Source of the DNA: Chiloscyllium plagiosum
Lineage: Eukaryota
Reading direction: 5' to 3'
Assembly: GCF_004010195.1 (NCBI RefSeq)
Contig: NC_057756.1
Location: 1,701,703-1,765,702, forward strand
DNA length: 64,000 nucleotides
The position numbers and the translations under genes are program-made. The first letter of the stretch is position 1. Every line of letters starts with the position of its first letter. The notes beneath the pieces are model-generated. The model saw nothing but the letters and a program-made list of their open reading frames with translations, did no database searches and was not told where the DNA came from. Below, piece by piece: positions 6,251 to 45,300 of this stretch.

Positions 6251-6277
6251 CTGACTTTGTTTTCTCCAGATCAGTTT
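6251..6277 (-). CDS. microexon 16 (27 nt): KTDLEKTKS
   Basis: gtccattcccttgcag|AAACTGATCTGGAGAAAACAAAGTCAG|gtaaag; resembles exon 3 (LxxTK motif). Confidence 0.78.
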
Positions 6278-9200: not shown

Positions 9201-12200
9201 TGGTGTTGGTTCCAGATTGTAGACTGAGAACATATTGATGTCAGATGTGTTTCAGAACTAGGGAAGAGGGATAGATTCTGAACGTGAATTGATCTTGGGG
9301 AATGACTTAGCTCAGGGCCTAGTTATAGGATACAGAAACAGAGATTGGTCAATAAGTGAAACAGTGGCTCTGATTGAGAGCACTTTCTATCTGCTGCAGG
9401 CAAACAGTGTTGTATCTGGAATGTGAGCTCAGGGTTTTGGAAAGTGGCAGTGGTTGTTGAGGGGTGTAACGATATGATCTTAGCTAGAGCTGGAATAATG
9501 AGTGGCAGTGGTTGTTGACGGGGTCAAGATATGGTCTTAGCTAGAGCTGGAATAATGAGACTGATGGACCTACAGGGAAGACAGTGTCTTCAGCGCAGGA
9601 ATGTTGATCGGTTCAGTCATTGCAATAGAAACCTTGTCCTGGGGCGAGTTATGTGAGATCTGTTGCTGCTCTAGGGAATGTGACCTGATCCACCAAGGGA
9701 GCGATTACATTGAATAACTTTACAAACGTATGGCTCTTGTAGTCGGTCGTCTGTTTTCAGGGGGAATTATATTTTGATCATGGTCAGGGATATATATGGG
9801 CTTATCATGAGCTGTAACTGAGGTTTGACAGTTGTCAGTTTAATAATTAAAATACTCATACTTGTTGAAGGTCAAACATTGTCTGAAATTAAAATCTAAT
9901 AAAGTCCCTTTTCAAAAACAACGACCTCAAAATGTTGTTACTATGTTTTCAGCCTAGTGACTATAACTTTAAAATTTTCAGTTTTGTTTTGCCATTAAGA
10001 TGGGTCAAACACTGCATTTTAATGTAATTCCTTGTCACTGCAACTCACACGTGTGCATCGGATGCAAAATTAATGCAATATCCATCGGTCTGCTCCATTC
10101 CTGACGCTAATGCTAAATCGTAATTATGCTGATTCAATTTTCATGGTAACACAGTACAACCATTGTAGGAATGTTCAACATTGATAGATTGAGGATATAT
10201 TCTATGGGCCACCACATTAGGATATGTAATTCTAGCGATGTCCCACTCTTGTGGTCCAGTGGAAAATGGGAATTTATATCTTCCAAACTACTCGAAGGTG
10301 AATATACAGTCTACCTCAATATACACCAAGAGAAAGCTTGTAACACACATTAATATCGAAACGAGATTGAGATGTCATGCAGTGACATGATGAGCAAAAT
10401 TGCAAAAACCCCAAACTGTGTGATCGAACCTAGCAAAGGCTATGATCAAATATCATGGTGTTGTTGCAACGAGACAAAACGGAAATTTGTTATTGAATCA
10501 CCATAGAGCCTCATTAATGGCTAATGAACCAAACATGATGACATAACGTATTGTCGTGTTTTTTTTTTTAACTTACTGGCCTGTTCTGTGCATCTTTTAA
10601 GTTCTAGAAAGCCAAAAAGAGATTCATCATGCAAGCAGTTTGAAAATAAAACAGCGAAATATTAACAATGTGCAGTAAAAAAATTGATGTTGTCGTAAAG
10701 TGAATGCTACCAACGGTCAGCTTAACGAGAAAACTGATTCAAAACAGATGATTTCTGAATACTGGATTTACTAGATAGCACAGCTATTTCTTTTGTCAGG
10801 TCAGTATATTGTGATGCTTTCTGCTGAAGTTTCCTGCCACCATTAATAATTATCCAGTACATGCTTGAACCATTTATTTCATGAGCCAATATCTTGACTG
10901 AAGACCATGATCACCTTCACATACGCAAGAAAAGAAAAATGCATCATGCAACTTATTTGCACAGTCAGAAGTTGAAATACCAAAATTCTTTCCGCTTTTC
11001 ACGCTGTTCCAATCTTGCTATAGATAAACCTCATGTACTTGTTTAATTTAAAAAAAACAATCAATTTCTCTTTCAATTTGTTTTCCTGTGTCTTGTTTTC
11101 ATGTTCTATTTTGCTTGTCCTTTCTGATGTACTTTTTTCATGTGTGCGGATTGATATTCATGTACATTGATATGTTGATATAACTGAGGGACACTGGAAT
11201 TCAGGGTGGAGGGAAATCAAGCAAACAACTACATATGCTTTCTTTTTTAACATTTTGAAATCAAGGCAGCATTATACGAACAGGAACATTGTATGTATTC
11301 ATACAATATGTATATAATCATCAAAGTGACGACTGGGAATTGTTAACAAGGTTTTTAAAGCTACCTTCTTCCAGTTGTCCACGGAACGCTCTAAACCAGT
11401 GCCATAAAACACCAATGATACAATAGACAGAACACAAAAACTGACATAATGAGCAACACTCGATGTTTTCCTATTCTTACCTTTTTCTCTTTTATTCAAA
11501 GTTTCTTCTATAATTGGAAATAATAAGTTGAACTTATGCTGATTTATTCATTTTTTTCAGTCTTGATGGAGAGGAAGTCCATTGGTGAAAAAAACATTGG
11601 GAATAGGAGTTGGGAGTTCATTTTGCGGTTGCACAGGACATTGGTTAGGCCACTGTTAGAATAGTGCATGCAATTCTGGACTCCTTCCTATCAGAAGGTT
11701 GTTGTGAAACTTGAAAGGGTTCAGAAAAGATTTATAGGATGTTGCCAGTGTTGGAGGATTTGAGCTACAGCGAGAGGCTTAACAGGCTGGGACTGTTTTC
11801 CCTACAGCATCAGAGGCGGAAGGGTGACTATATAGAAGTTTATAAAATCATATCGAGCATTCATAAGATAAATATTCAAGACCTTTTACCTGGGTTGGTT
11901 GATTGCAGAATTGGCGTGCATACTTTTAGAATGAGAGGGCAAATATCTCAAAGGGACCTAAGGGTCTACATTATCATGCAGATAATGGTGTGCATATGAA
12001 ATAAGCTGACAGAGGAAGTGGTGAAGGCCGTTACAACTACAAAATTAAAAAGGCACGCCAATGTGATAATGAATAGGAAGACATTAGTGGGATAAGTGTG
12101 AAGTGCTGGCAAATTGGACTAGATTAGGTTAGGATGTCTGGATGCATGGACGAGTTGGTTTGAAGGGAATTTTCCCATACTGTATGTCTTTATGATTCTA

Positions 12201-13016
12201 TGACTCAATATCACACATCATTCTTTGGACGTTTGTCAAGAACATGTGCTAATTGACATCCATCTGCACAATAACCATTCTGTGACACTGTGAATCATTG
12301 AACCATCATACAGAAGGTTTTTTTACATTGCATTGAACTCATTCCTGGACCTATGTACAAACAAAACTCACCAGTTTCATTAAGAGATTCTTTTACTGTA
12401 TTTAGTTCTGTAGTGAGAAAAATAGAAAAGCTTTCTATAAAAGGAATATCAACAGTCCTCGACAAGTAGGATAAGATTAAATAATTATTTATGCATTATA
12501 ATTTAACAATGCACTCCCCTCCATCTATGTGTATTTCTTCCCGTCTATCTGCTATTCTAGCTGTTTGTTTGTCTTTCTNNNNNNNNNNNNNNNNNNNNNN
12601 NNNNNNNNNNNNNNNNNNNNNNNNNNNNNNNNNNNNNNNNNNNNNNNNNNNNNNNNNNNNNNNNNNNNNNNNNNNNNNNNNNNNNNNNNNNNNNNNNNNN
12701 NNNNNNNNNNNNNNNNNNNNNNNNNNNNNNNNNNNNNNNNNNNNNNNNNNNNNNNNNNNNNNNNNNNNNNNNNNNNNNNNNNNNNNNNNNNNNNNNNNNN
12801 NNNNNNNNNNNNNNNNNNNNNNNNNNNNNNNNNNNNNNNNNNNNNNNNNNNNNNNNNNNNNNNNNNNNNNNNNNNNNNNNNNNNNNNNNNNNNNNNNNNN
12901 NNNNNNNNNNNNNNNNNNNNNNNNNNNNNNNNNNNNNNNNNNNNNNNNNNNNNNNNNNNNNNNNNNNNNNNNNNNNNNNNNNNNNNNNNNNNNNNNNNNN
13001 NNNNNNNNNNNNNNNN

Positions 13017-13087
<71 letters not shown>

Positions 13088-16000: not shown

Positions 16001-19000
16001 TTATTCAGTATCCACCACCAGGAAGATAGCAAATCACCCGAGTGGCCAGTGACAAGCAGTGCCCTTCACATCAAAGGGAAATGCTGCATGATCAAACAGT
16101 GAAGGAGAGGCAGGGATTAAATCAAAATAGAGTTGGACGGGGAAAAATGCACTTCACTCCCTGCGGCGCCCACCTCTCCCTGAACAACTCCAGGGTGTTC
16201 CTCTAATTGTTATTGAATGGTTTGTGATAATTAAATTGCTACGTCAGAAATACTTTTTGAATTTGCATTGATTACACATGTATTAAGTACCATCGAATGG
16301 CAAAATACTGAGAATAAAAACGTGAAGGGATGTAACAGATCTGAATCTATCGAAGTTTGGGACTGAACTACAGTACGGTGAGATCATGAAAGATTTAGGG
16401 AGGCGCAGTGGCTCAGCAGTTAGCACTGCTGCCTCGCAGCACCAGCAGACCCGGTTTCGATTCCGAGTTTGCACATTCTCCCCGTGTCTGCGTGGGTTTC
16501 CGCTGGGTATCCTGGTTTGGTGAACTGACCGTCTTAAATTGTCCATGGTGTTAGGTGAAGTGGTAAATGTAAGGGAATGGGTGTGGATGGGTTGCTCTTC
16601 GAAGGGTCAGTGTGGACGTATTGGGCCGGAGGGCCTGTTTCCACTCTGCAAGTAATCTAATCATTCTGCTGAAGTGTTGTATCTGCATACTGATAGCACG
16701 CCAGGTTTCCCCCAGTGCAACTCACAATACCGTACCAGTATTTTAATACGCTTGTGCATATTGCATTACACTCTCAGTATAATCCATTCTAAATAAGAGT
16801 CACAGTTACAATGAAATGAAAAAGCAAGGTATTTTTTTTTACTTCTGTTAACGTTTTAGGAAATTATAGTATGAAAAAAATGTGAAGATAAAATCATACC
16901 TCTTTCCTTTTTAGCCAGGTTTTGTTCTATGTTAATAAAGAAGCAATATGCAAATTGTACATTATTGCATAATAATAGCATTGTGCTGATACTTTCCCAG
17001 CAATAATCAAGGAAACACCAAAGCAATCTAATTATTGACTCAGATTTCTAACAGAACTTAACACAACGATGTGTTATCAAATTGCCCACTGATTCTATTG
17101 TACCAAGCCTTTCCAAATATGTTTATTCTACCTAGCCTATGGAATGCCAAGTGTAGGTTTTAAATCATAAATGTCGTTGGATTTGAATATAAGAAATCAT
17201 TCACTTTTTTCACAATGTTGCTGCAGAGGAGTGATTGCTGCTTATTGAAGACATTAATAAAAGTGATTTTCCTCTGAGTGAAATGAACATCAGCGTTATC
17301 AATTTACAATAACAACCTGCAGTTTCTAACCCCTGAATTAATAGAAGGAAACCAACATAAAAATTGGGAACTCTGCCATGTTTCATGTGCTCTGTCTCCT
17401 CCACTTTGTGCGTCATTGCTATGAGATTCCCAGTGATATATTATCTCAATTCAATTATTTCTTCACGAGGAGTTATTTTCTCGAAATACAAAAATCAACA
17501 ACTCTCTGCATCATATATACCCTATAATTGCTAATCTGAGTGCACAATGCATACTGATTTTGTTATTGCAGAAGAGTCATTGAATTTTGTACTTTTAAGT
17601 ATTAATGGAGGTATTTGTTTAAAGGTGCTGTAGATTCTCAGTTTATTTTTCCCCATCATTTTAAAACACCTATTCTTTTCTCAATTATGAACACAGAGAT
17701 GAACAAATCCATTCCTTTTAAACAGAAACTCATCATCAAGGCGAATTGTTTCATTAAGTGTTTAATGATATCAATGAAAATATTATAGTAAAATCTTTTG
17801 TTGCTGAATGAATTTCGATATCCAGACCTCATAATATGACGTGTTTGTCAAATTATGCGTCAACTCAGAAGCATCGTTTTAAAATACTTTGTCATGTCAT
17901 CAATATGAATATTGGAGCAACAACAAAGAACATAGAACAAAGAAAATTACAGTACACGAACAGTACCTTCGGCCGTCCAAGCCTGTGGCGATCCACATTC
18001 TCTATCTCAACATGTAGCATATTTTCTAAGAGGCTGTATCTTTCAGCTCCCTGCCCATTCATTAATTTGTCTAGATATATCTTCAATGACGCTATCATTA
18101 CCGCCTTTAACACCTCCATTTGCAACGTGTTCCAGGCACCCACCACCCACTGTGTGACGAAATTTCCACGCATATTTTCCTTAACCATTTGCTCTCTCGC
18201 CTTGAAAATGTGACTCTTAGTAAATGCGTCGCCCACTCTGGGAAAAAAAAAGCGTCTTGGTATCCACCCTATGTAATCCTTCATGATTTTTCGATCTCAA
18301 TCAGGTCCCCTCTTAACCTCTACATTACTAATGTAAATAATCCCAACCTCTCTTCATTGCTAGTGCCTCCCATACCAGGCAACATCCCGGTGAATCTCTC
18401 TGCACCCCCTCCAAACCATTCACGTCGTTTTGGTAATATGACAAGCAGAAGTGTACACAGTGTTCCAAATGTGGACAAAACAAAATCACATATAATGGTA
18501 AGATGACCTGCCAACTCTGGTACACAATACTTCATGCGGTGAAGGAAAGCATGTCTTCTTGACCACTCTGTCCACCTGCATTACCAGCTTCAGAGAACAC
18601 AAATGGACCTGAACACCCAGATCTCTCTACACATCGATTTTCCCCAGAGCTTTTCCATTCATTTTACAGTTCGCTCTTGAATTGGATCTTCCAAATTGTT
18701 TCATCTCAAATTTGACCGGATTGAGATCCATCTGCTAATTCTTTGCCCATTTCCCTCATCTATCTAGATTCGGTTGCATTCTCCAATAGTCCCCCTCACT
18801 ATCTGGTCCTACGCTAATCTTCATGTCATCTGCAAACTTGCTCATAAGACTGCCTATTCATTCATCCAGATAGTTTATGTCTATCACAAACAACAATAGT
18901 ACCAACATGGAATCGCATGGAATACCGCTGGTCACAGTTCTCCACTTTGGGAAACTCCCTTTCATTGTTGCCCTCTGTCTCGTTCTGCTTAGCCAGTTCT

Positions 19001-22000
19001 CTATCATTCTATCAAGTATGCCCTGAACCTTATGTGCTTTCACTTTCTCCATCAGCCTGCCATGTGGCATTGTGTCCAACACCTTACTGAAGTCCATGCA
19101 TATGGTATTGTGTCAAACACCTTACTGAAATCCATGCATATGACATCTGCAGCCCTTCCCTCATTAATAAACTTTATCACTTCCTCAATGAATTATATAA
19201 GGTTTGTAAGGTATGACCTTCCCTACACAAAACGATGTTGCTTACCACTGATAAGCCCATTTTCTACCAAATATAAACAGGTCCTATCGCTCAGTATCTT
19301 CTTCAATAGCTTCCCTACCACTGACATCAGGTTCATTGGTCTATAATGACCTGGATAACCCCTGATAGAATTCTTAAGGAAGGGGATGACATTGGCAATT
19401 TTCCACTCCACCGGGACCTCATCCGTGTTCAAGGATGCTGCAAAGATATCTGTTAAGATCCCGGCTATTTCCTTTCTTGCTTCCCTCAGTAACATCTGGT
19501 AGTTCCCATCCGGGCGTGGAGACTTGTTCCGTTAACACTTTTCAGAATACTCAACATTTTGTCCCTCCTTATGTGGACTTGGCTTACAGTTATCAAATAT
19601 CTATCCCTAACCTCAACGTCGGTCATGTCCCTCTCCTCAGTGAATACTGATGGTATGTACTCTTTACGAATCTCACCCATTTCCTCTGACTCCATGCATA
19701 AGGTTCTTCTTCGTGCTCGAGTGGGTCAACCCGTTCTCTGGTTACCACCTTGCTCTTTATATAGGAATAAGTGGCGTTGGGATTTTTCTTAACCTTGTTG
19801 GCAAAGGAAATTTCATAATAGTCTTAATTCCTCGTTTCAGATTGGCCCTACCTTCCTGATACTGTTGCAAAGCTTCGTCTATTTTCACTCAACTATACCT
19901 TATGTATGGCTTTCTTTTTCCTCTTCACTCATCTCACATTATTACCTTTCATCTATGATTCCTTAATCTTGCTATTTCGTTCCCTCATTTTCAAAGAAAA
20001 TTCCCTCAATCGAATTCATCTCTCTTTAAAATCATCCCATATATCACATGTGGATTTATTTTCCAACACCTGCTAACAATTCACATTCCCCAGTTTCGGC
20101 CGAATTTTACTGTCGTTGGCCTTCCTCAAATTTAGCAATCGCCATTTTCGGAACACTCACATTTTTGTCATGAGTTGCCTAAAACTTACGGAAATCTGAT
20201 CATTATTCGCAAAGTATGACTCCACTGAAATATTAGCCACCTGATCGGGCTCATTCACCAACAGAAAGTCCAGTATAGCCCCTTCCCGAGTTGGACTATT
20301 TGCAAACTACTCTACAAAACCTTCCTGGATGCTTCTTACAAATTCTCCTCCTTCTAGTCCTCTAACATTTGGTAAATTCCAGTCATAGTTGGGAATATTA
20401 AAATCTATCACCACCACTGTGTTGCTCCTATGTCTTTCCATAATCTGTTCTCATATTTGTACCAATATCGCATGCTCACTGTTGGCAGGCCGGTTGTACA
20501 GTCCCAACATTGCTACCGCACCATTCATATTTCTGAGCTTTGCCTACATTGCCTCACTGCTCGAGTCCTCCATAGTGACCTCATTCGGCCCAGCTGTGAT
20601 ATCCTGTCAGACCAGTGATTCAACTGAGATGCTGGTTCATGACCCGCATTTTCTGATGCATGCTACCAAAGCAACTGGGAAATTTGAAAGAATAGTCCTT
20701 TGGATTAAAGTGCCCAAATGATGAGCTTTTGTTATTGGTACTATAATAAACGAATACAACGTGGTCACTATACCCTGCGAGTAGATTACACGGAAACAAA
20801 ATATACACCATGCACATCATGGATATTCTGATACCCATTGTTTCACTCCACTCTATTTTCCTGTCTGGTGTTTGGGAACTTTTGCTTTAGGTGGCAGACT
20901 ACAAAGCAATACTTGTTGAATGCATAACCATGTCATATTTGTGAATTTCTCATATTCTATGCAAGCATTATTTTTCGTCTGTGGATCATGTTAAGTGGAC
21001 ATCTCAATGAAATTTTCAAATTAAACGGACGCTATAGAAATAATTTACATTAGAACATAGCAGCCCAAACAGGTAACACTGCTCTCGTTCTCATATTATG
21101 AATCTTGACATCTGTGGAACAGAAATGACTATACAGTATTATATATATATTTTAAAAATCCAAACCTGTTACATTCCATTGAAAAGTATATACTTATGAA
21201 ATGATTGTCTCAAACCAACAAGGGAGACACAGTAAGATTTCACAATGGCAAAGCTATGACAACTGAGCAATCGAATTCATTTAATTTGTTAATTGACAGT
21301 TTCCGTCTATTCACATAAACAGTTCAATTTTTCCAAATATATTTCACTTCATCCTCACAAAACAGAATGATTTCATTCATTTCTTTATGGAAGTATTCCT
21401 TGAGTATTGTGTCATTCACTAGCCACTAAAGGCACAGCACCGGCTATTTTGTGCATGTTGCTGTAGGTAGTCCTAAACACAGGACTTTGTGAATCTCTGT
21501 CAGAAGTTCCACTAAATGAGCAACTGTGATGCAGATCGGTGTATTAATAAGGAAATGAAGCAAGCCCTCAGGTGATAGCAGCATGCTAAATGTCACAATC
21601 TTTTTACATGTTGTTTATTTGAGAAGACAATGCACGTTTTGGAATTGGTGCCATGAGACGTGCATTAACTTGCTCCAAGTGCAATAACGTTGAAAGTCGA
21701 TGCATTCTGTGTTATTTTCGATCAATAATTGAGGAGTTACTGCAGTTGACAAAGTTCTCAGGGGATCATTTATAAATAGGTCAGGAGAAACTGTCTGCCC
21801 ACAGACTCCCCATAGCAAATCAGACAACCATTGTTAAGCATTCTTACCATTATAACACACAACAAGAACAGAACAGATTTAAAAAAAAATACAGTAATAA
21901 ACCAAGAGTATTCATGATTTGATAGTAAAACAAAATTAGTTTATTTACCAGTTTCATCAAGACTTTTATTCACGTCTTGCAATTCTGAAAATATATGGCA

Positions 22001-23603: not shown

Positions 23604-23670
<67 letters not shown>

Positions 23671-26600: not shown

Positions 26601-29600
26601 AAAATTTAGATTTAAGTCACAGTAATTGAACTCCTGCATTAAGTAACTTTTTTTAATTCAGTTGGGTTCATTTCTTTTAAATAATCTTTGGAACAGACTT
26701 TTCACTTCTTCAGAGATATCATGAAAGTTTTGTTATCAAGATTAGAAATTAGTTGGGCAGCTGTGTAATGTCTTGAAAAGGATAGTACAACGCGATTCAG
26801 TGCTCAATTGGTTTTAGTCAATCTTGCATTTCACACTTTAAATCTTTAGTAAGACAGAATTGCTCAGCCTCGAGTGAATAGCTCTAGTATAACTGAGAAA
26901 TTGAAAAATATTTATGACAACTGAGGAGATTCACGTCTGTAGTAGCAATGTTGGTTTTCTTTTTATTTTGCTATGTGTTTCATCACAGTAGAATTGAGAA
27001 CTGTGCAACGAAATTATCCAAATTCTTACCTCTTTCTTTCTTGCTCAATTTTTGTTCTGTTGAATGTAGAGATTATATGATACATTATAAAAGTATGGTA
27101 AGAATATATTATGAAGTTACTACCACTTTATAATATTTATATTAATTATTAGTTAGCAGATTGGCGGTTTTGACTGAGGATTGTTTTTTACAGGCACTTT
27201 TTTGTAATTGATTAAAATACAACATTCAGAGTAAATAATATTTTCATAGATTTAACAAACTGTTTATGTCATTTGAAAAGTCATACAAGAAGCTTAGTTA
27301 CTGAAAACATAAATAGATAGTAGAATAAAAACACCAGATACATTTTGGCAGAGCTCGATAGACTAGTTAATGAATCTATTGGACTGAATGAAATTGTACG
27401 GGCAGCAATCATTTATTGGACAACAGGTGAAGTCGCTTTTAATTTGACAGACCGCATGTCCTTTTCTTGATCAATATATGATATTTCGCAAAATGATACA
27501 AAACGATACACAACTCTGATGAGAAGAAATGTTCTCAGTGAAAGGTAATAAGACTTATATGCTTGTTAAAGCAAGAGATATGCGAACGTGTTTCAGATTG
27601 GTTCAAGACTGACAACATTCAAGTCATAGAGTGATAGAGATGTACAGCTTGGAAACACCCTTCGGTCCAACCCGTCCATGCCGACCAGATATCCCAACCC
27701 AATCTAGTCCCACCTGCCAGCACCCGGTCCATATCCCTCCAAACCCTTCCTATTCATATACCCATCCAAATGCCTCTTAAATGTTGCAATTGTACCATCC
27801 TCCACCAGTTCCTCTGGCAGCTCATTCCATACACTTAGCACCATCTGCGTGAAAAAGTTGCCCCTTAGGTCTCTTTTATATCTTTCCCCTCTCACCCTAA
27901 ACCCATGCCCTCTAGTTCTGAACTCCCCAACACCAGGGAAAATACTTTGCCTATTTATCCTATCCATGCCCCTCATAATTTTGTAAACATCTATAAGGTC
28001 ACCCCTCAGTCTCCAACGCTCCAGGGAAAGCAGTCCCAGCCTGTTTAGCCTCTCCCGATAGCTCAAATCCTCCAATCCTGGCAAGATCCTTGTAAATCTT
28101 TTCTGAACCCTTTCAAGTTTCATAACATCTTTCCGATAGGAATGAGACCAGAATTGCACGCAATATTCCAACAGTGGCCTAAGCAATGTCCTGTACAGCT
28201 GCAACATGACCTCCCAACTCCTGTTCCACTCTACCCATTTTCCAATTTGTTACATCGGGGAAACATGTTTCTCTTCCCGTGTGTAATGTATAAAGTTACA
28301 ACTCTCCAACAAAGATGTTTTCTTAGCTTTATTCTGTTCCACATCCTCTAACTTTTAATCTCCAGTCTTGAAAAACAAAATCTAAGGTTGAAATGTATAG
28401 TGCTTGGACAGAGAATGAAATAAAATAACTAACATTACCACTGGAAGTGGTTAACTTCCTTATTGTCATTTATATAAATATTGTTCAACGTATATTAAAT
28501 CTGAGTCTGTTAAGCTCGCACAGGCAATATTCATAAGGTTTCTACTTTTTTGATGCATTCAAGAGATGGCAGTGATGCCTGTTGGGCCAGCAATTCCTGC
28601 CTGGTTGGCAGATAAGGATCACAGTTCTCACTTTCTCCAAGCGAAGGAACAAACACTCGTGTCTGAAAGAAGATGTATTCCTTGTCTGATAGTTGTATGT
28701 TTTCTGACAATGGATGCAAAGTCATCATTAAAGTTTTAACATTTATTTCAAGTTCCAAAACCTGCTGTGGCATTAGTGAACCAGGCTCCGCAGAGATATT
28801 ATCTGATTCAACAAACTAACAGACCAGCAATAATGCTATTAGCCTCCCAACTCCACCACGTGTTTGAATGAATTTCGACAATCAGGTGAACTCCGCAAAG
28901 ATGAGGACTGTTTGCAAAAACCGAGCTTGCAATCTCCTGATGATTAGAGCATAATTTTGATACGATAAACTTTCTTTTTAAGTTACATGCATTCATCAGC
29001 TTTTCTCCATTATTGCTTCTGGTGTGCTGTCAGAGCATCGACAGTTAGCTGGAAATATCTGTTCAATTACTCACAACTCAATGAGATACTGCTGGATGGA
29101 AAATAGAATTCTCAAAAATTACTCTTCTACAAGAACGTAATTCTCGATGTAAGTTGCCAAACAATGATGTACATTAAAAAAAAAATCATCACGGCTGTTG
29201 AACGGCATTATGTTGATGAAGTTCAGTTGATAACAATTCTGATGAAATCGAAAGGAATATAAAACAGTGAACGTATTTTGTTTTCGCTCTGTGCTGTGTA
29301 GCAAAATGTAATAAGAAGTGTGGTGTAGTGTTGCCAGTCTTGGGCACCTTCTTGAAATACAGCAAAATCAACTAAAGCATAGAATATATTGGCATAAGAA
29401 TGAACAGGCCAAGAAAATATCAAACTTAAAAATTCTTCCTGTTCAGTGCTCTGAAATGGCTACGGGACTGATATCTTCTTTGCCGGACTGATAGTCTTAG
29501 AATGCAAGGCACTGCAGTGCCATCTCGCCTCTACCGATGCCCTCCTTACTATGAGTCCTTAACAAACCTTGCCAATGCAGACACCGCCAAGGCCACCTGA

Positions 29601-32600
29601 TATCACAGCGTTTTAAACTCTAGTCTCCATGATAATGCGTCTGCTTTAGGCTAATATCACCAATGCAGCTAATCCCAACGCCGTTGGGTCCGGTAGTGAG
29701 TCCAAACTTAACTGCACTGCTATCCTAATAATATTTGCTGGACTTACATTCCGCCAGGAACTGAAATTTGCCTCAGCTGCAGGCATGAATTGTTGTAGTT
29801 TCTACCTCGTCGACGACTGCCAGGAATCTAAATTCATCACTAACATCAACGTCAAATTGGTCCGCTAATGGTCCTTTTCAGTTCCACTGTTGTTATTGAA
29901 ATGACAAGTCTCTTCAATAAGAGATGAGTAAAATAAAATAGAAGAGAGAAAGAAAAACGAGTGAAAAGAGAAAGACGTAAGAAAACAATGAGTCCCGGGT
30001 GAGAAGCCTTATTCACTGTCATCGTAGAGGCAGTAATGTGTCATTTCATGTCCTTTCTGAGGACATTAATCTCAAGGGCAACGTCATGGATAGATCAAAT
30101 CATAGATCAAATCATCTTCAATGACGTAATATTTTAATGGATCAGGTCCTTATATTTTTTTCAGTATTCTTGTATTTTGTTTTGATTTAAAATTTTGATC
30201 TTTGCCTTCAAACCGTTCAGTGCTGTTCAGCGTTCTATACCCTTCGGAAATACAAGTGATAACAATATTTGTGTGAAGAAACTTGTCGCTTTCTATGACA
30301 AAGCAAACTTGACATGCATTTCAAGAGTTTTATTATTCATAATCCACCATGTAATAATTCACTGTTTCAAACCTTACTCTTGATGACAATATCTTATTTG
30401 TAATTAAGGATTACTTTCGATTGAAAATTTCACCACAAGATAACAATCTTAACTCTCTGAAATAGAGCAAAGATTAAGTTTAATGAAAATTCAAGATATT
30501 CACTCTTCGATCAGTATTATCAGAAAATCCGATGCGGCACACAGGAGTATGCCCTGAGTCAAACAAATACCCTAAGAATATTAGTTGTGATTCTTTACCT
30601 GTGAAAACTTCGGAATAAACGTTAAAGAAAACTCTCTGCCTGAATCGTACACGTTGTAAAAAATTTCGTTGGTATGGACTTGCATCTGCAATGCTTCTTT
30701 GACAATCCGTATTTCCAAATATCTGTTATTTGTATATTATTTCAATTCTCACTTTTTCTGTCAAAATTGCTAATTTCCCATTTCAGCACTTCATTTTCCA
30801 TTCATCTGGAGGATTATAACGCAATCAATGTGTCGGTATATTTTTCTCACTACTTAATATCTTCATCAATTGGTGACAATGCTAAGTGTGAGTTTTGCCT
30901 TCAAAATGAATTGATATAGTATTGATGCATTTTGTTCTCAACTATTCTTCACAACATATGGGGTTCTGTCAGATGCCATCCACTTCATGGATTGAAAAGA
31001 TAAGCATTTTTCTCTGTTGTGGTTACTAGATTGTACAAATTCATTTTGAACTTTTAGTCACAAAACGGGAAAATGAAACACATCAAAGAGTACCAGAAAC
31101 AAATATAATTGCTAAGTATCTGTAATGACAATTTAAAGCACGATATTAATATTGCCACATTTATTGAACTGCTAACTTTGCATGATGTACTTTATTCCGT
31201 AAATAGGAATGGCCTACCTCTGAATGGTGAATGCTACGTCAGCTACTATTTTTGAACAGAAAAACATCAAATTGTTCCGATGAGCGTTTGCAATCTTACC
31301 TGTTTCTCCAAGAATTTCAATTTTCTCTTCCAATTCTGCAATTCAATTTAAGAAATAATTTTGCTGGTAAATTCGCCTGACGAATCCATAACTTTATTCC
31401 AGTAAAATAAGAACAAAGTAAATATCATCAGCAAGTAGCAATGAATGACGGGATATTTTGAAAGCAATTTTGTTTCTTTTTGGAATGAAGAATGATAATG
31501 ACTCTCAAATATTATTTGTGATGGTGAGGGTTTTTTGCTTCAACTGATATAGGCAAGGAAATAAATATTATGCATTAAATGTAATTATAATCAGTTTTAT
31601 GATAAGTGGTGCTTGAAAAAAAGGCAGATAGCTCAGTTGACACGCATACAGATTGAGATAGATAGATAGATAGACTGATAGATGGATAGATAGATATATA
31701 CATTTATAGATAGATGGACAGAAAGAATGGATGTTGAATGAGCAGTGGACCATTGGTCCCTTTTAATACACATAGTTTGGGATTTTTTTTCTTTCATATT
31801 TTATTACTTCACACATGGGAGTATTGAAACTGTTTGAACCTGTGTGATGTTTACCTTTTCCTTTTTGGCGAAGCTTGTTGTCTGTGAATAAAAAAAAAAA
31901 GACGATGATGATGATTATTATGATACTACTACTCATAGTATAATAATAGACGATAACACTTATAGATGATAATATTATTAATAAAATGTCAACATTTATT
32001 GCACAGGGCACTCGTTAGACAAGCAATCTTTGGTTCGAAGTTAACTTTAGAGACGTTTAGCATTGAAAGCAATAATAAGTTTAAAATGTAAATTTACGTA
32101 TGTGAAGACAAAAAAAAACAAAGTGTGGCATTACTACAAAGGTGTTGTGGATGCGGAGGTGAGTGAGTAAGGAGAGCAGAGTGTATGTGCCACAAATTGC
32201 TTGGGTATGCATTCACCCAGTAGTGATATAAGGAAAAAGAATTGCGAGCAGCTGTGTAAATAGCTTGGATTCACATTGACATGCATTTAAATATGCTGTC
32301 CTTGAATCTATCTTTAATTCTGTATAAGTAAATAACACATGTCTTGAATGGCAGATGACTATTTCACTGGATGACGTTATGGATGATTTAATTTTAGATT
32401 AGTTACTTGGATGGATGGATTAATCCATCCATATTTAAGTTGTGCAAGTGTATGTGTGTGGGTGTTCAGGAATGTGGTCATATAAGTGTGTTGTTGCCTT
32501 ACTTATGCATGCTTATAGATGGACATGCGTAAGACATGTGTACTGGGATAATAGCTACATTAGCGGAGAATTCGTGCAAGAGTGCATATGTCCACGATAT

Positions 32601-35600
32601 AGATGTTGGATGCTTTGAGTTATTAATTATTTGAACAGTCGGCGACATGTGAAATCAAGTAGGGGAGTGAGTTGTAAAGTGATTAGATGTTTATATTGGT
32701 TTATGAATTCATACAATCCCAACAGTGTGAAACCAGGCCATTCTGTCCAATTTGTGCACAATAAAGCTGCAAAAAATGATTCCTTCCAGACCCATTCCTT
32801 ATCCACATTCTTTTTCAATACTAATCTACCGAGCATGCAGATTTTTGGACTGTTGATGGAAACCAGAGCACTGGGAGACAACGCATGCAAGAATGGGGTG
32901 AATGTGCAGATTCCACGCAGACAGTCAGCCAACATTGGATTCAAACTTCGGTCTGTGACGATGTGTGTCATTCGTAGTAGGGACTGAGCCACCGTACCAC
33001 ACATGCAGTGAACATTTTGATGTGCTTTGCTAGATAGGTGAGTGCTCAGAGATTGGGTTGCTTTGTGACAGTGTAGGCTGTCAGTTAACAAGTGACAGTC
33101 ACTTGGGAACACCATGCATACATCAATGTTTTGAACAGTCCAGTAATCCTTTTTGAATTGCAAGTGAAATCGCCATCAGCAGTCTATAAATTCAGAATGT
33201 ACCAGCAATATCGGAATTCGTCATTATAGGAATAGATATTCTCTCCAATTCCTGAATACATCTGCACAGACAGAGTTCTACCATTTCCAGACATACTTGA
33301 CTTGTAATACATTTCGCTAGTTTTAATGCCGAGACAAGAAAGTTTCTGTCATTCTGTTTTAATAATGACATGGTTGCAGCAAAAATGCCAAATAATTAAT
33401 AATTGTACAGAAAGAGCATGTTAGAGGAAAGTGAAACTGAAACATTACGTTTATCACACGTATTGAGAGTGCAGTTTTGCAGCAATGGTTAGAGCTGCAG
33501 GACCAGATTAATAATCTGTGCTGACCCGTTTTTTCCCGAACTAAACCAGTCTAACTTGGCTGAATTTGGCTCACATCTCTCTAAACTTTTCCTATCAAGT
33601 ACATTTCCAAATGCCTTTTAAATGTTGTACCTGTTCCTGCACTTTCACTTGCTTTGGCAGTTCGTTATAGGTAAAAAAGTCATCCTGTTTTTCTTTAAAA
33701 GAAAAGGCCGTCAAGTCCCTTTTAAATCCTTCTCATGTCAAGATTAAAATATTGCCTCGAGTTTTTAATTCCACCAACTGACGGAAATAAAACCCTTTGC
33801 TATTCACTTTATCAACGTTGCTCATGATTTTATACACTTCTCAACTTCTTACACTCCAGTGGAAAAATTCCCAACCTATCTAGCCTCTACTTATAACTGA
33901 ATCTCTTCAGTCCTGGCAAGATTATAGTTAAAGAAAAGAAAGGACTGTGGATACTGGAAATTGGAAAAATAAAGAGAAATGTTTTAGTAATGTGATAACA
34001 ATATGATAAGAGGTATGGCGTATGGGAATGGCCAAAATGTAGGTAAGATTCTGAAGCCCTAAAATTGTTGAAATCAATATTGAGTCAGAAGGCTGTAGCG
34101 TTCTTAAGTGAAAAAAGAGGTTATTCTTTTAATTTGCAATGAGCTGCGCTGTAGCACGGCAGAAAGCCTGAGACAGATAATTTGGCCAGTGCTCAAGGTA
34201 GTGTGTTGTAATGGCAGGCATCGGGAAGCTCAGGGTCTTTTTAATGGACAGACCATATGTGTATTGTGAAGCAGCAACCCAGACTGCGCCTCTATTCCAC
34301 TGTCAACTATATCACCATTCTGTGGCCTTCTGAGAAGTTGTCTCTGAGCGTCTCATCCAAATCATTTACATAAATAACAAACAATTAGGGAAATCCACAG
34401 AATCTTTGAAGGACACTGCTGCTAACAGGCCTCAAAACAAATTCTTCCACCACCACACTGTGTCTCCATTCGTTAAGACATCTGCATTTAATTGGCTAGC
34501 TTAATCTAAATCCCAAGAAATCTAGAACTGATAACACAATTGACTGCTGGGCGGCAATTTTTTGTCTTTTTTTTGCATCAAAATGAGACGCTACTTTACA
34601 CTCACTTAATCTTATTTCCGGTTTTATTTGGATTGGGATTAGTTTTACTATCTACCTTGATTGCCTGATATTAAACATTGATGTAAATGCCAATACATAG
34701 AGTTATATTAAACTTATATTGCGCTTTCTCTATTAGAATGCATCCCTTTAAAACTGAAATAATCTGAAATGCTAGCTTATTTTATAAACACATTCAATCC
34801 ATTTTTTGAACTAAGATTCAATTAGTCCTGTTGAAAAACCTCAAAATGAAATTTTAAACAACTTCTCACCTGAATCTGCAAGACTTTGTTCCAGCTCTTT
34901 TATTTCTGATGGAAAGAACAGAATGACAGGTAAATTATATAATTATAATGTGGTTTTCAAATAGGTGGACGCTAAAACTATGTGTTAGATAAAAGTAACA
35001 GAATCTAGTCTGCTGCGCTTCTTCTGTCAATTTGAATATGCGGCATATTCCTTTCTCGACAGCAGCACTACAGGAGGGTCATAACCAGTTTTGTAGTGAT
35101 ATACAAGAAAATTGCGTCACCACGAAAAAATTGCTATAATTTCTCAGATGGAAAAATGAGATTGTCTTTGGCTGTACAGATCATTCCACCATTCTGCAGT
35201 GGCGTCTTTTCACTATCGCAGTTGTTGCAAACATCCTCTCTGATCTATACTGCTCATTTGCAAATACTGATAAATGCTTGAAAAACATGTTGCATTTTCA
35301 CGATATGAAATATCCAATGAGTGAGAACCAACCGGCAGGCAGTGCCTTAAAATGAATATAGTTAAGTGAGAAGAGGACTATGTCGTAATCAGAGGAAAAC
35401 TGTGTTGAATTTGATGCTAATATTTTCTGGAACATGTGGAACAAGTTTTAAAATAAATTGTAAGGTGGAAATTTATCGAAGAATGTGTGTGTGAGAAAGA
35501 GAGCGATTTGACAGTGACAGCGAGTGAGAGAGGGAGATGGAGAGAGACATAGAGATGACAGATATCTGTGAGTTTATGCGTGCTGAGAAGAAGGCAACGG

Positions 35601-36317
35601 GCTCACGTAGAGATGGCATGGTTTCTCAGTGCTTAGCACTGCTGCCTCACAGCGCCAGAGACCCGGGTTCGATTCCAGCCTCTAGGCGACTGTCTGTGTG
35701 GGTTTCATCTCACAATCCAAACATGTGCAGGTTAGGTGAATTGACCGTGCTCAATTGCCCATAGTGTTCAGGGATATGTAGATTAAGTGTATTAGTCAGG
35801 GGAAAATATAGGGTGGGGGAATGGGTCTTAGTGGGTTAATCTTCGGACGGTCGGTGTGGACTTGTTGGGCCGCAGTGCCTGTTTCCACACTGTCATGATT
35901 CTGATTCTGATAATATGTAAATGTTGATAAAGCACTATGTTCATGGACAAATTTATTCCGAAACAGATACCATGCTCAGTTAAAGCTGATACCTGGAGAA
36001 ATAAGCTTTTACGTTTATAGCTATTACCACAGAGAAAATATTCAAGGCTAGTAATTGAAGAATATCCTGAAATACCTTGCATTGCTCTTGCAACAGACCT
36101 CAATTCATGAAATTCAATCTTATGGTGGTAATTCTGTTTGCATTGGACGTTAATTATGAATGGATCAAAATCTTGAATTTGACCTGAACTGATGGTTTGT
36201 TTTTGCTCAGGAATATGACCAGATTTCTATTTTAGTGTTTCGTTTCCTAGATTTTGGCCTCCTGTATCATCTGAAATTACGTGGAAGTCCACACACACGC
36301 TACACACGCACGCACGC

Positions 36318-36349
<32 letters not shown>

Positions 36350-39300: not shown

Positions 39301-42300
39301 AGCAAAAGAACTCAGACAGATGTGAGGTATGTCGAATGGAAAATTTAATTATTGTTTTCGTTTTTTGTATCATGAATGGGGGGGGGGGGTTGGTGGGAAT
39401 GGTGGAGTTTGCACATTCTCCCCGTGCCGGCGTGGGCTTCCTCCAGGTGCTCCAGTTTCCTCCCACAGTCCAAAGATGTGCAGATTAGGTGAATTGGCCA
39501 TGCTAAAGTGCCTGTCGTATTAGGGGAAGGGTTAGATATAGGGGAATGGATCTGGATGGGTTGCTGTTCGAAGGGTCGGTGTGGACTCATTGGGTGGAAG
39601 GGTCTGTTTCCACACTGTAAGTGATCTAATCTAATCTAGAGTGTAAACATCGTAAATTGTCTATGGTTTCAGTGCATGACAGCTGAAATTAAGCTTGATT
39701 TTTAATGTATGAAATGATGGCTTCTTGAAACATACTTGCAGAGCTATCAGAGCAAACTGAAGAGCACATGTCTTAGAAATAATTCAGCTAATCGTTTCAA
39801 TGTCTCTTTTGAAGGAGAACTGGAAGCATTACAACATTCCTCCTCATCTGTAATGAAATGTGATCTGTGATATATTTTGTTAATACTCGTATTTGTTGTT
39901 TTAGACGTCATAAACAAATCGGATGAAATGATATAAGGGAAACGCAATATGTGAGTAAAGACATTTTATTTCACTTCCTCACCTTTTTCTCTCCTTTTCA
40001 ATTTTTCCTCTACAATGAGGAAGCAGAATTTTAAGAGCTTGAAAGAGGTCATTTTAAATATGTACGAAAATCCCATTCAGAGATGTTGTATTCAAATACT
40101 TGTGGCATGCTCTCGACGAAGACGATTTTCAAATCAGAAACATTCCTATTTCTGAATCGTGAACAGTTGACGAAGGAACGATTTTGCCATCATTGTGGCC
40201 AGTTGAAAGAACATAAATCATTTTGCCATCATTGTGGCCAGTTGAAAGAACATAGATCATTTTGTTAAATTATTATAGTCACCCTGCATCACTTTGTTTA
40301 CAGCATACACAGACCTGAAATGCACGAAAAATAAATTCTCTTGTGTATTGATTGTTTGATTGCACCGACTGACGCATGCTTCGTTTTCTATTGAATGATT
40401 TGCATTTCCAATCACACATAATAGATATTGATACACTTCAAAATTGTCTTCAATCAAAAGAAGGTTGGCAAAATGTTTGTGGTTGAATTAATGTCGAAAA
40501 ATATCGCATTTTCTCTGAAGAATAATTCAATAATACTTCACACCAGTTTAGGTAGTTAGAAATTCACAATGATTTGTTTAAGGACTGAAAAAAAATCTTT
40601 TTTGAGGCCCAGATGTCACTTGAATAACACCCAACGTGCTCGTCAAATAAATGGTGACATGTTCACCTTAATATTTAAATTTCTTGCGTTCCGAATAATG
40701 GATTTACTCCTTGAAATTATAGAGTTGGATGCGGGTTTTGGCATGGGATGCACATAGCTGAAAATCACACAACATCAGTTTATAGTCCAACAGGACTGTT
40801 GGACTATCATCTTTGATTTGGAGACGTCGGTGTTGGACTGTGGTGTACAAAGTTAAAAATGGCACAAGTCCAGGTTATAGGGTAAAAACAATGATTGCAG
40901 ACGCTGGAAACCAGATTCTGGATTAGTGTTTCTGGAAGAGCACAGCAGTTCAGGCAGCATCCGAGGAGCAGTAAAATCGACGTTTCGGGCAAAAGCCCTT
41001 CATCAGGAATAAATAGGTTTTTGCCCAAAACGTCGATTTTACTGTCCCTCGGATGCTGCCTGAACTGCTGTGCTCTTCCAGCACCGTTAATCCAGAAAAG
41101 CAGGTTATAGTCCAACAGGTTTATTTCGACGCATTTCAGAGAACTCTGAAAGATAATGTTTCCAAGTAAACATGTTTGACTATAATTAGGACTATAACCT
41201 GGTGGTGTGTGATTTTTAAATTTAAAATTACATAGACTTAGCAGTATCACCTTCAACAATGTTCCTATCAAAATTACAGAGTAATTCCGTTTTGAACTTC
41301 ATGATTAACATGGATCAATCGTGATATCATGCAAGCCAATATAAAACTAAACAGTCGCAGTGGAATTTTATTTCTCAGCAATAAGTTTTCGTTTACTTTG
41401 CCCTCATTTTGCACCAATTATCTTTCCTTCGTCAAGTGTTCACGATTCAGAAAAATAAAACTCCATATTTCCTTGTCAAACCCAGAAAAAATGAATACTT
41501 TCTCCAAAACTCCACTTCCAAAATGAAAACGTTCTAATATGAATAACGTCTAATTCTAAAGTAAAGTTCCTGCTCACTGTTTTATATTTGTGCGAATCTT
41601 TGATGCCCTCTATCTTTCCAAAACTTGCACGTACATCCACACGAATACAAATTGTTAACTGAACATAACTTCCGTGTTCTTTTACTTTGTCATCATACGA
41701 GGAAAGCTTGGTATTTAGCATGCCTTACTGAAAAAAAACGTATCCAGCCTTCTGCAACTAACTGCACAGGCGTACACTAACGTTTAATTATTCTTGCACC
41801 TCCTCAAAGTTTATATATTTTTATATTGTATATATTTTATATTGTATATATTTTATATATTTCTATATTTATAAATTTTTGTATTGTGTTATGCTATAAA
41901 GGTGAAGGGGCTCATATTTGCACAAGAAAACCTCTTTTCCCAATTGTCCACGCATTACATTCATTTTTCTGCGTCATTTTAATGGTCTGCATGATGCAGT
42001 TCAGTTTGTAACGTCTCTAGGCTCACTCAAATAGTTTAACACTTGCATCTGGACAACTGCACAATATGTCATCCTACAGATAATAAAAAATGAATAACTA
42101 TTTCACGCCATTTTCTACCATACATTTGTCTCGTCTTAATGATGTCACAATAATGTCAATTTTATGTCATCTTCAATTGCTGAAAAATACTTTGTAGAGG
42201 ACGATATAGCATGGTTTTCCAAGATCCGTGACACACCAGGAATAAAAAAAAACTGCCCTTGCCAATAATCTCAATTTCCTCTTAGAACCGTCAAAGATGA

Positions 42301-45300
42301 TACCTTAAACTAATGTATAGTCACTACCGTATCTCATTTGAATGTTTTTCCCCAGATAACTGTTTCTCGAAGTTTCATATTCACCAAAATGACTTCGAAT
42401 GTCAAATGGTGGTCCGTTCATCAAGCAAATTCCAATCTGAGTGTTTCATGCCACACCAGAAGAATATATGAAGGCCCACACACACCGACGCAAAGACAGA
42501 CAGACAGATAGACAGATAGGCAGACACACACGCACATACACGAGCGCACGCACACACATGATCGCACACACAGACACAACACACACACACAACACACGCA
42601 CACATACATTCTGAAAAAAATCATACACTTTGACAAGAAAGTACTTACCCATTCCTGCTAGATCTAGTCCATTATGGTCTGTACCTGTAAAACATATGTA
42701 ACTCATTAGCGACCATTTTTAAATCTCTGTGCTGGACCTATTTCAACGCACAACCTCGGCCAGACGTAGCCATGCACCCACAGTTAATTTCTCTCCAGAG
42801 ATTTTCTCTATTGAAATGATCAAACAACATTCAAACTTATGGTTTTCAGACAGCTGATGAAACTAATAAATCAAATGAAACCGTGAGCATACTGAATTGG
42901 AAAATCATACGCCCGGCAGGCTGACGTGAAAATGACAGGGAGCATTAAGGAACCACTTATCATTAATGGCCAGCTTTAGGCGAACTTTAACGAATGGCAA
43001 CTGCTTACTGGTAGCACATTGTCCTTCATGATGAATTTTGTTTTTTTTTTACCGATAATTACCTGTCACATTTTACAGAACACGACAATGTATTTGAATT
43101 TAAGAGCAAGAAAAACTGTCATATAAAGCAGAATGACATATTATGTCACAGTGGACACATTATTCAGGAAAGTGTGGGAACCCATTTGGCAATAATGTCA
43201 GCATGACATGATGATTCGAAAGAGTTGTTTTATTTTGCATTGTTATGACTAAAGTCACTGTCACAACTGATTTCTGTCTCTCCCTAACTCCTCAAAACTC
43301 TTACCACTGCAAATTGATCAGCAAATTTTTCAAGTGCTTTGGAATAAGGTACTTAGCCTCATTTCTGAAAATACTGCCATTGTTTTGACTTGAAGTTAAA
43401 CTGATTAAAATGCACTTCAATTTTCAAGGCATGTTTTCCTTCTCACATATCGGCACATTTTACTCCACATCTTGCTGACGTAGAGCATAATGAAATCGCG
43501 ACATATAATCCAACATGGGGTATTGTCAATTAATTAAACTGTAACCTACTGTAGTACTGAAATTGCAAAAGTAAGAAGCACTACACAATATTCTGACAGT
43601 GGAGTATAAATTTATCATACATCCAAAGTGTGCCTGATAGATTACTGAGTAAACATAATTCTGTAGTCAACAACTTACTGCACTTTTGCCGAAGAGCTTC
43701 TAATTCTGAAGTAAAGATAACGTTACCAGTTTTAAGCTTCGATATTCAAAGACGATTGCCACACCAAATTAGCAACTGTTGACCCAGTTCTATTCAAGTA
43801 AAATGAGAAAAACTATGCATTGTGAAGTCATTAACACCTTCTTAACTCTATGTTCCAAACATTATATTCTACAGCTTCAACCTGGACCTAGCCACATGTT
43901 CACCTTAGAGTTCACTACAGCATTATTCTCCATTGAAAAAAAAAGACTTGCAGCTGACAGTGAAGTGAATAAACTGATGTAATCAAATGATGACGTGAGC
44001 AAAGTAGATTTGGGAAAGAAAATGTATGGCACATAATGTGTAAATAACAAGGTAAATTAAATAACTACATTTTACAAAGTGGCTATTTTGGACTCACTTG
44101 CAAGTAATGAGAACTGCTGACTGGTAGCACAATATGCGACATGAGGGAGTCTCCTTTGTCAATGACAGCTGTGTATCACATTTACCCAACAAGGATATGT
44201 AGTTTAACGTAAGGGGAGTATGTCTGTCATATAAAATGAACTATTGTGTTACACTGCAAGAGTTAATAAGGAAAGGATAAATTGACTATAACGTTCTCAG
44301 ACTGTAATTTTGGTGGTGAAATTTTGTTGTTTCGGTGGAAGTGATTTTCCAATCCCCAAAGATAACAGTGAAAAACAATGCACAGATCTGAAAATAGTGC
44401 AAACAGAACCCAGATATAACACAATACCTTGACTCATAATACGACAAACAAGCAATGGAATAACACGGTTTTGGACCTATTTTCTTTCTTTGATTTACAT
44501 TAGTGAACATGCTAAATTCAATATTCAAAAAAAAAGTCCTCCCTGTGCAATTCTGCCAAAATAATTTAGGAAATCGTTGAGTATGCAGAAAGCATTTTCG
44601 TCATATTTGTGCGATGTAATATGTCACTTATGTGAGTTCAATGGATACTTATTTTTAAAATAACACGTTCACACCCTTCCACAATTTCTTATGCCATTTC
44701 CACAAGTTGACAGAAAGCATATAGCAATGTCATGTAATTAGCATTTTGATCAATTATTCCTATTCAAAAGAAGCAATTGCATTCCAATTAAATGTAACTG
44801 ATTAGGAACATTTTTAAAAATCCTGTTACTCACACAAAGACAGATACAAAAGAATGGCTATCGTAGTCCTCTCCCATAGGATGCTCAGAGATGGTCCTTT
44901 CGGCCGTGTTAAGTCTTGCTGTTCCTTGATCATTGTTCACTTGTTTTCAGGAGGCATCCAGTACTGATCACATTCATAATATATCTGACATACTTTTAAA
45001 AAGGCAAATCCTACAGCAACTTTTGAGGGAATAAGCTATCTCTCCGTGAGATTGCGACTGCTGCATTTTGTTTCTGCAGAAAAGAAATATAAAACCACCT
45101 TTTGTTTCCAGAGATCCAAGGGCTCTTGCTCAAGTATATAAACGCACAAACTATTCAGTTGCCTGGGAAGCAATGTCATAGTTGTTAACAACAGAAAGCG
45201 TATTGTCAGCGACAATGAATCACGGTTCTGCAGACTAATCAATTGTGTGCGAACAGCCAATTATCCACTTGGATAGATCTTTGCTGCAACTTCTATTCAA

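Follow-up and report, generated by a model that had tools for sequence, protein, structure and literature searches.

The minus strand of the window (the whole 64-kb stretch of Chiloscyllium plagiosum DNA that was analysed) contains 16 candidate micro-exons, all of phase 1 and each 27 or 36 nt in length (16/16), which extend over 53 kb with a coding fraction of only 0.9%. Ten of these are AG..GT segments located between 42684 and 11481, and the remaining six lie outside that span. The ends of the putative gene fall outside the window, and all 16 exons would represent an internal part of it.

Extent and composition of the micro-exon array

Candidates were collected as symmetric, phase-1-open AG..GT segments of 9-330 nt on both strands of the window. 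Segments of 27 or 36 nt account for 17 of the 51 minus-strand candidates but for only 2 of the 49 plus-strand ones (Fisher p=2e-4); one of the 17 (22626, 36 nt), which sits in a dispersed repeat, was left out to give the set of 16. No stop codon is present in the shared frame of any of these exons, compared with 10/16 and 9/16 exons containing stops in the other two frames, although this count is not fully independent because the shared frame is part of the candidate filter. For 16 segments of such lengths drawn at random, the probability of all being open is 4e-4. It is barely credible that the array represents a pseudogene or chance AG..GT matches since, even though the acceptors of several exons are weak (e.g. 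46289 and 31335), the strand enrichment, the homology between exons, the open frame, the synonymous leucine codons described below and the low chance of all 16 being open argue against this.

Reading 5' to 3' along the putative gene, the array commences with a B-like 27-nt exon (59272..59298; p=0.002 against the B exons) that lacks Leu at position 4, followed by an A-type 36-nt exon (58298..58333; leave-one-out score 27 bits versus a control of 10.9), a second B-like 27-nt exon with a weak acceptor (46263..46289; p=0.02 against B) and a 27-nt C-type exon (43679..43705) that closes the first zipper tract and starts with Glu-Leu as do the A exons (p=0.048 against the first 27 nt of A). The next exon, X (36 nt, 42649..42684), has a linker-like 5' half rich in His, Asn and Gly and an A-like 3' half, with a register shift of two inside it. 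B (27 nt) and A (36 nt) exons then follow in strict succession: B at 39983..40009, A at 34870..34905, B at 31855..31881 (the most divergent B, with a leave-one-out score below control), A at 31300..31335 (weak acceptor), B at 27030..27056, A at 21949..21984, B at 16900..16926, A at 12372..12407 and B at 11481..11507. A second 27-nt C-type exon (10577..10603), whose likeness to A is not significant (p=0.16), closes this long tract and is followed by exon D (27 nt, 6251..6277), which is weakly B-like (p=0.054) and carries a Leu 11 residues past the preceding one, again a shift of register. An assembly gap of 438 N (12579..13016) lies in one of the B-to-A introns and may conceal an exon.

Exons of the same type are homologous, with identities of approximately 55-70%. 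In leave-one-out profile scans the best plus-strand control was exceeded by all five A exons (27-38 versus 11-13 bits) and by four of the five B exons. The original prediction described a strict 36,27 alternation repeated five times from 42684 to 11481, and this holds for exon lengths inside those coordinates, but not beyond them, where adjacent 27-nt exons occur on both sides (27,36,27,27 upstream and 27,27 downstream). The exon at 42684 does not belong to the A type, as it matches only one of six positions of the A motif. Its A-profile score of 7.4 bits falls short of the 9.6 reached by the strongest plus-strand control, and the resemblance to A is confined to the 3' half (p=0.011, compared with p=0.84 for the 5' half). 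There are therefore four true A exons in this span rather than five. The motifs proposed as common to each type are likewise looser than stated, ELxxxxxSLxET being exact in 2/5 of the 36-nt exons and ExxLxK(K/R)E(K/R) in 3/5 of the 27-nt exons. The longest alternating run of 27- and 36-nt exons comprises 11 exons (p=0.003 on shuffling the 16 lengths, post hoc), and the observed succession is one of 126 possible orders of five B and four A exons (shuffle p=0.008).

Three further segments were set aside, namely 19878 (27 nt), which has a purine-rich acceptor and scores 14.0 bits on the B profile against a control of 14.7, 51528 (24 nt), which has a weak donor, and 7060 (33 nt), which would create a TAA codon when joined to exon D. 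A segment at 1432 (33 nt) is open and constitutes an additional candidate outside the 16. Exon-centred protein alignments gave no match at E<=10 among 5,623 and 2,376 candidates of 75-2000 aa, which is weak evidence because the informative part comprises only 9-12 residues. HMMER returned a single match among 1.84 billion representatives, a bacterial Ig-like (Big_2/SdrD_B) repeat protein that we discounted as spurious and unrelated. Pfam matches were obtained for 4 of the 73 minus-strand frames of at least 80 aa in the window, all of them reverse-transcriptase-related, and none of the 73 contained a non-transposon family. No Ig-V or transmembrane exon is present among these frames, and no RING-like motif or RING/B-box Pfam match was found on the minus strand of the window, the 5' end of the putative gene being outside it in both cases. 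Similarly, the window contains no C-terminal lectin domain and no B30.2 (PRY-SPRY) domain, the ends of the gene lying beyond it.

Leucine register of the predicted product

Judging from the sequence, the pieces would be joined by splicing, and when joined in order in silico the 16 exons encode 162 residues. Positions 2 and 9 of the A exons (12 residues) are Leu or Ile, and position 4 of the B exons (9 residues) is Leu, so that an A+B pair yields one leucine every seven residues. This bears out the proposal that the 36+27 pair forms a block of 21 residues, or three heptads. The longest tract runs from position 9 of X through (B-A)x4-B to position 2 of C, a distance of 14 heptad steps or about 14.5 nm, and within this core Leu or Ile occupies 14/14 consecutive seventh positions. 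Over both tracts the "a" positions are Leu or Ile in 19/19 cases (18 Leu and 1 Ile), and five leucine codons (CTT, TTG, TTA, CTA and CTG) are used along this stripe. In its hydrophobicity spectrum the core has its maximum at a period of 3.50, a result that none of 10,000 random shufflings of the residues reached. The core lacks Pro, and 49% of it is Glu, Lys and Arg. Assigning Leu to "d" was ruled out, since "a" would then become Glu or Asp in 9/14 heptads.

The register shifts twice in the window, each time past a distinct 27-nt C exon, and it is thus kept only within tracts. The product of the array would be a chain of zipper tracts rather than one continuous zipper. The leucine-stripe helices would most likely pair as a parallel coiled coil in which Leu provides the "a" layer, with a weaker "d" layer of Val, Thr, Lys and Arg and with Glu at "e" alongside. 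Every tract is closed by a C exon together with a linker that shifts the register, so that the protein would resemble a rod or spacer made of segments.

A charged single alpha-helix or loose rod, in which the leucines could bind another protein, is a quite improbable alternative to a stable coiled coil. Single alpha-helices are not known to have a hydrophobic seam of this kind, and both the 14 unbroken Leu/Ile at period 7 and a spectral maximum of 3.50 exactly, instead of 3.6, are consistent with the seam of a supercoil. On the other hand, the content of Glu, Lys and Arg is 49%, the "d" layer is largely polar (hydrophobic in 4/14 and Lys or Arg in 6/14) and only 3/14 g-e' pairs are attractive. 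There is also a precedent in the "zipper protein", a BG tail described as a regulator of actin-myosin (PMC4046983).

The reading we favour, and consider reasonably probable, is that these 16 coding phase-1 micro-exons form the central portion of a single large gene on the minus strand, and that its product is a segmented and probably dimerising leucine-stripe rod grown by duplication of A+B units. In silico skipping of any one internal exon leaves the frame open and reduces the best Leu/Ile stripe from 14/15 to between 7/13 and 12/13, while skipping of any neighbouring exon pair gives a best stripe of 11/12. If one exon alone were lost or skipped, the frame would accordingly be kept but the leucine stripe broken, and selection probably acts against such changes.

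Proposed growth of the array and possible selection on register

The original prediction was that the coil grew by tandem duplication of a two-exon cassette. This is plausible from the sequences, because the A exons are homologous among themselves and the B exons likewise, but trees, distances and introns lend it no support. The trees of A-type and B-type exons suggested as a check gave no resolution (bootstrap 23-71). Distances between A exons do not correlate with those between B exons in Mantel tests, either for AB pairing (r=0.03, reached by 60/120 permutations) or for BA pairing (r=0.43, reached by 22/120 permutations). No homology by exon type is left in the intron flanks, where mean z values for same-type and different-type comparisons are 0.48 and 0.30 upstream and -0.10 and 0.29 downstream, with no excess for exons of the same type on either side. 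The introns contain many common dispersed repeats.

Tract growth may have proceeded by unequal crossing-over, with whole 63-nt A+B units being copied. Crossing-over between misaligned homologous exons would change the length by exactly one A+B unit even without selection, and because it too moves whole cassettes, the alternation cannot distinguish this mechanism from selection on register. The further suggestion that selection acts on heptad register, rather than on reading frame alone, is consequently inseparable from the mechanism of duplication, and the register is held within tracts only, being broken twice.

The same coding exons could therefore be read in another way, in which alternation is merely a by-product of the duplication unit, single-exon changes are rare and register is not itself selected. 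We regard this as rather unlikely. Misalignment by one repeat would always alter copy number by one A+B unit, the two shifts of register imply that shifts are tolerated somewhere, and combinations of 9+9 and of 9+12 residues do occur, in the neighbours B-C, C-X and C-D. However, these shifts fall at distinct exon types and not at random losses of A or B. Moreover, dispersed repeats shared between introns could delete single exons, and loss of splice sites could allow micro-exons to decay, yet in the profile scan no degenerate copy of A or B within the tract scored higher than the control.

Comparison of the exons points to constraint on the encoded peptide. In A exons codon position 2 changes least (27 versus 54 and 58 of 110), and the corrected dN/dS of approximately 0.74 indicates modest constraint, these pairs being short and non-independent. 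In B exons pN/pS is 0.328/0.643, with a corrected ratio of approximately 0.30, and codon position 2 is not the least changed (25, 32 and 35 of 80).

Relationship to known heptad-exon genes

The closest known design, by analogy, is the heptad-exon tail of the chicken BG genes, which belong to the butyrophilin family. These tails are encoded by many exons with a split first codon, most of them 21 nt long and representing one heptad each, with occasional exons of 18 or 24 nt, and are modelled as a dimeric coiled coil with hydrophobic residues at "a" and "d"; exon number differs between genes, with 27-37 in the alleles described (PMC5938342, PMC4046983). On these descriptions the array, as spliced in silico, resembles BG in having a long series of tiny split-first-codon exons that encode heptad repeats. 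It differs in that all 16 exons are 27 or 36 nt, rather than mostly 21 nt, and in that its unit is two unequal exons (36+27, three heptads) with register kept by pairs only, whereas the BG unit is one exon, any of which can be gained or lost in register because it encodes one heptad. The "d" layer is mostly polar in the array and, in the BG tails as described, hydrophobic. BG genes also carry a single Ig-V exon and a transmembrane exon upstream of the tail, neither of which was seen in the window, with the 5' end of the putative gene outside.

The mammalian butyrophilins (BTN/BTNL) are described as having Ig domains, a transmembrane segment, few cytoplasmic heptads and B30.2 (PMC4046983, PMC5938342). 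The array has at least 19 leucine layers in the window alone, and exons for Ig, transmembrane and B30.2 domains were not observed there. The rod would probably dimerise and keep a terminal binding domain at a distance, the role suggested for the tails of BG and butyrophilin proteins.

The stalk of CD23 (FCER2) consists of 21-residue repeats, each encoded by one 63-nt exon, in contrast to the two micro-exons that encode this unit in the array. Like the proposed rod, this extracellular stalk is a coiled-coil spacer of heptad repeats bearing a binding domain at its end, and it mediates trimer formation (PMC6791321). That the rod is the trimerising neck, outside the cell, of a type II receptor in the membrane, for example a CD23-like C-type lectin, is nevertheless highly improbable: Asn-x-Ser sequons are present in two A exons, but neither a transmembrane exon nor the lectin domain that accompanies CD23 was found in the window.

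We found no description of 36/27-nt micro-exon arrays in cartilaginous fish in the open-licence PMC and bioRxiv literature. Exons that are symmetric and 3n bases long are generally regarded as freely shuffled or skipped. Because every exon here is frame-neutral and only pairs are register-neutral, the array offers a natural test of whether the geometry of a protein limits how its exons are gained, lost and spliced together, which BG genes are unable to give since each of their exons is one heptad.

A bolder and doubtful proposal is that the array exemplifies a family of giant genes in cartilaginous fish that have largely escaped annotation, in which segmented coiled-coil rods are built from a small alphabet of phase-1 micro-exons and a "register code" atop the reading-frame code governs exon order and alternative splicing. 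In this equally speculative alphabet each exon would be defined by its heptad positions of entry and exit: A would run from g to e and B from e to g, C would act as a tract terminator and X and D as linkers. Co-skipping of A+B would set rod length and single skips would abolish dimerisation, so that the distance reached by a B30.2 domain at the end of the rod could be adjusted. More generally, with exons of 27-36 nt and 0.9% coding sequence, the array draws attention to large genes whose annotation is difficult.

Micro-exon candidates on the minus strand

We scanned the window with rough splice-site weights for AG..GT segments that are open when taken as symmetric phase 1 exons. This revealed 16 minus-strand segments of 27 or 36 nt, running from 59298 to 6251, of which ten were contained in the original prediction and six lie beyond its span. 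Segments of these two lengths make up 17 of the 51 symmetric open candidates (9-330 nt) on the minus strand, compared with 2 of the 49 plus-strand candidates (p=2e-4); one of the 17 was left out because it sits in a repeat. Together the 16 exons occupy 486 of the 53,048 bases of the array span and have a purine content of 71%, against 49% for the strand. Stops are found in 0 of the 16 exons in the common frame, which was itself a filter criterion, versus 10 and 9 in the other two frames.

The exons follow the order B*, A, B*, C, X, B, A, B, A, B, A, B, A, B, C, D, where A exons are 36 nt long (12 aa), B exons 27 nt (9 aa) with B* being B-like, C and D are further 27-nt exons and X is a 36-nt exon at 42684. 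This order places pairs of 27-nt exons on either side of the central tract, a tract being a run of exons that keeps one leucine register. The 36/27 alternation originally reported between 42684 and 11481 is present in these candidates, and reaches a length of 11 exons when the exon at 43705 is added (p=0.003, post hoc). Exon X, however, had been counted as A-type, and this assignment does not hold, as it matches 1 of 6 A-motif positions, scores below the control (the best plus-strand score) with the A profile, and is A-like only in its 3' half. The proposed motifs are exact in part, the A motif in 2 of 5 exons and the B motif in 3 of 5. C exons start with Glu-Leu as A exons do, their A similarity being weak or absent (p=0.048, 0.16), and the D exon is weakly B-like (p=0.054). 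Leave-one-out profile scans placed every one of the five A exons and all but one of the five B exons above the control; no further A or B copy inside the array exceeded it, although an assembly gap of 438 N (12579-13016) could hide one.

Leucine register and the two-exon unit

When the core, the longest tract (X through four B-A pairs and a B exon to C), is joined in silico, Leu or Ile occupies 14/14 consecutive seventh positions, which come from residues 2 and 9 of A exons and residue 4 of B exons. The hydrophobicity spectrum of the core peaks at a period of 3.50, a peak reached by 0/10,000 shuffles. Across both tracts, 18 of the 19 seventh positions hold Leu and the remaining one Ile, and five Leu codons are used. 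As the A exons are identical at just 19-25 of 36 bases, the persistence of this stripe in varied Leu codons is the best evidence of protein-level constraint; corrected dN/dS ratios (A exons ~0.74, B exons ~0.30, from short, non-independent pairs) are a weaker sign. With the stripe at heptad position 'a', position 'd', three residues further on, is hydrophobic in 4/14 heptads and Lys or Arg in 6/14, and 3/14 g-e' pairs are attractive. The array is thus likely to form a coiled coil, but not a textbook one, since the regular stripe is combined with a polar 'd' and few attractive g-e' pairs. There are two shifts of register, one by 2 within X and another where C meets D, and each follows a C exon. 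The gene forms a series of zipper tracts, the longest of which is ~14.5 nm.

Skipping any single exon in silico always kept the frame and lowered the best Leu/Ile stripe to 7/13-12/13, whereas skipping a pair left it at 11/12 in every case. Nine exons, five of them B and four A, can moreover be arranged in 126 ways, of which the observed order is one (p=0.008). On the strength of these simulations and this order we regard the 36+27 pair as the structural unit of the array, with three heptads, as had been predicted. That the pair is also the duplicated unit is plausible, and this part of the prediction gains no backing from exon trees, which it had proposed as a check (bootstrap 23-71), from co-variation of A and B exon distances, of which there was none, or from intron flanks, which keep no type-specific similarity. 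The state of the flanks suggests that any such duplications would be old. Selection on register, also proposed, may have caused the pair-wise alternation. Alternation alone is no proof of this, because unequal crossing-over of misaligned copies would change the count by one whole pair. The profile scan detected no decayed single exons inside the tract, although its introns are repeat-rich, and this leans toward selection on register.

Known heptad arrays and gene identity

In chicken BG genes the long tails are encoded by numerous exons of 21 nt whose first codon is split, and the tail is modelled as a dimeric coiled coil (PMC5938342). By analogy with that account the candidate array would work like a BG tail, but its exons are of 27 or 36 nt instead of 21. 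The array is no simple product of fused BG-type exons, because 36 nt is not a whole number of 21-nt units. In butyrophilins B30.2 comes after a few heptads (PMC4046983), and CD23 has a heptad stalk that trimerises (PMC6791321). Our searches of open-licence papers turned up no report of arrays of this kind from cartilaginous fish. The array is real and represents a variant, not named before, of the micro-exon heptad-array design; its unit comprises two exons and three heptads, whereas splicing, oligomer state, gene identity and selective cause are what we infer. No domain-bearing exon was detected in the window, where 73 minus-strand frames of at least 80 aa gave retrotransposon matches alone. 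Three protein searches found no related proteins, which is weak evidence as the queries were very short. We give roughly even odds to the array being part of a B30.2 gene.

Additional candidates and surrounding repeats

Two 33-nt minus-strand AG..GT candidates have good splice scores. That at 7028-7060 would create a TAA on joining to the next exon, and is therefore a false or terminating exon; that at 1400-1432 is open and His-rich, as is the linker exon X. The 12-kb intron that follows the upstream A exon contains an open candidate of 24 nt (51505-51528, minus strand) whose donor is weak; if real, it would move the register by one. Use of a second acceptor, 27 nt farther upstream, would turn the A exon at 12407 into an open 63-nt exon (12372-12434, minus strand), whose nine added residues are not coil-like.

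The window is vertebrate-type DNA with a G+C content of ~38%, in which SINE-like and LINE-like repeats occur alongside microsatellites. At 13419-16199 (minus strand) lies a broken fragment of an L1/Tx1-like retrotransposon with RVT_1 and zf-RVT matches, which carries a 316-nt repeat (85% identical) at each end. As this repeat matches the 3' end of the element itself, the arrangement resembles a tandem of two copies truncated at the 5' end more than an element with long terminal repeats. Two 600-nt LINE-like 3' ends (27625-28224 and 50152-50744; 87.5% identical), which we take to be CR1-like, gave no Pfam match; more diverged copies lie near 11.6-12.2 kb and 22.3-22.8 kb. A degenerate LTR-retrotransposon-like remnant at ~2900-5200 (plus strand) has a weak integrase-core match (E=5e-4, below the curated cut-off). 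A SINE-like family is represented by ~7 copies, 63-80% alike (16400-16660, 24870-25170, 35620-35900, 39000-39630, 53250-53550, 57260-57480 and 58730-58830). A donor-like site at ~37290, which has no good in-frame acceptor, lies near one copy of a 130-nt direct repeat (37419-37548 and 38452-38578; 81% identical, 1 kb apart). An inverted repeat at 40916-41097, with 82-nt arms that are 90% complementary and an 18-nt spacer, resembles a small non-autonomous DNA element.
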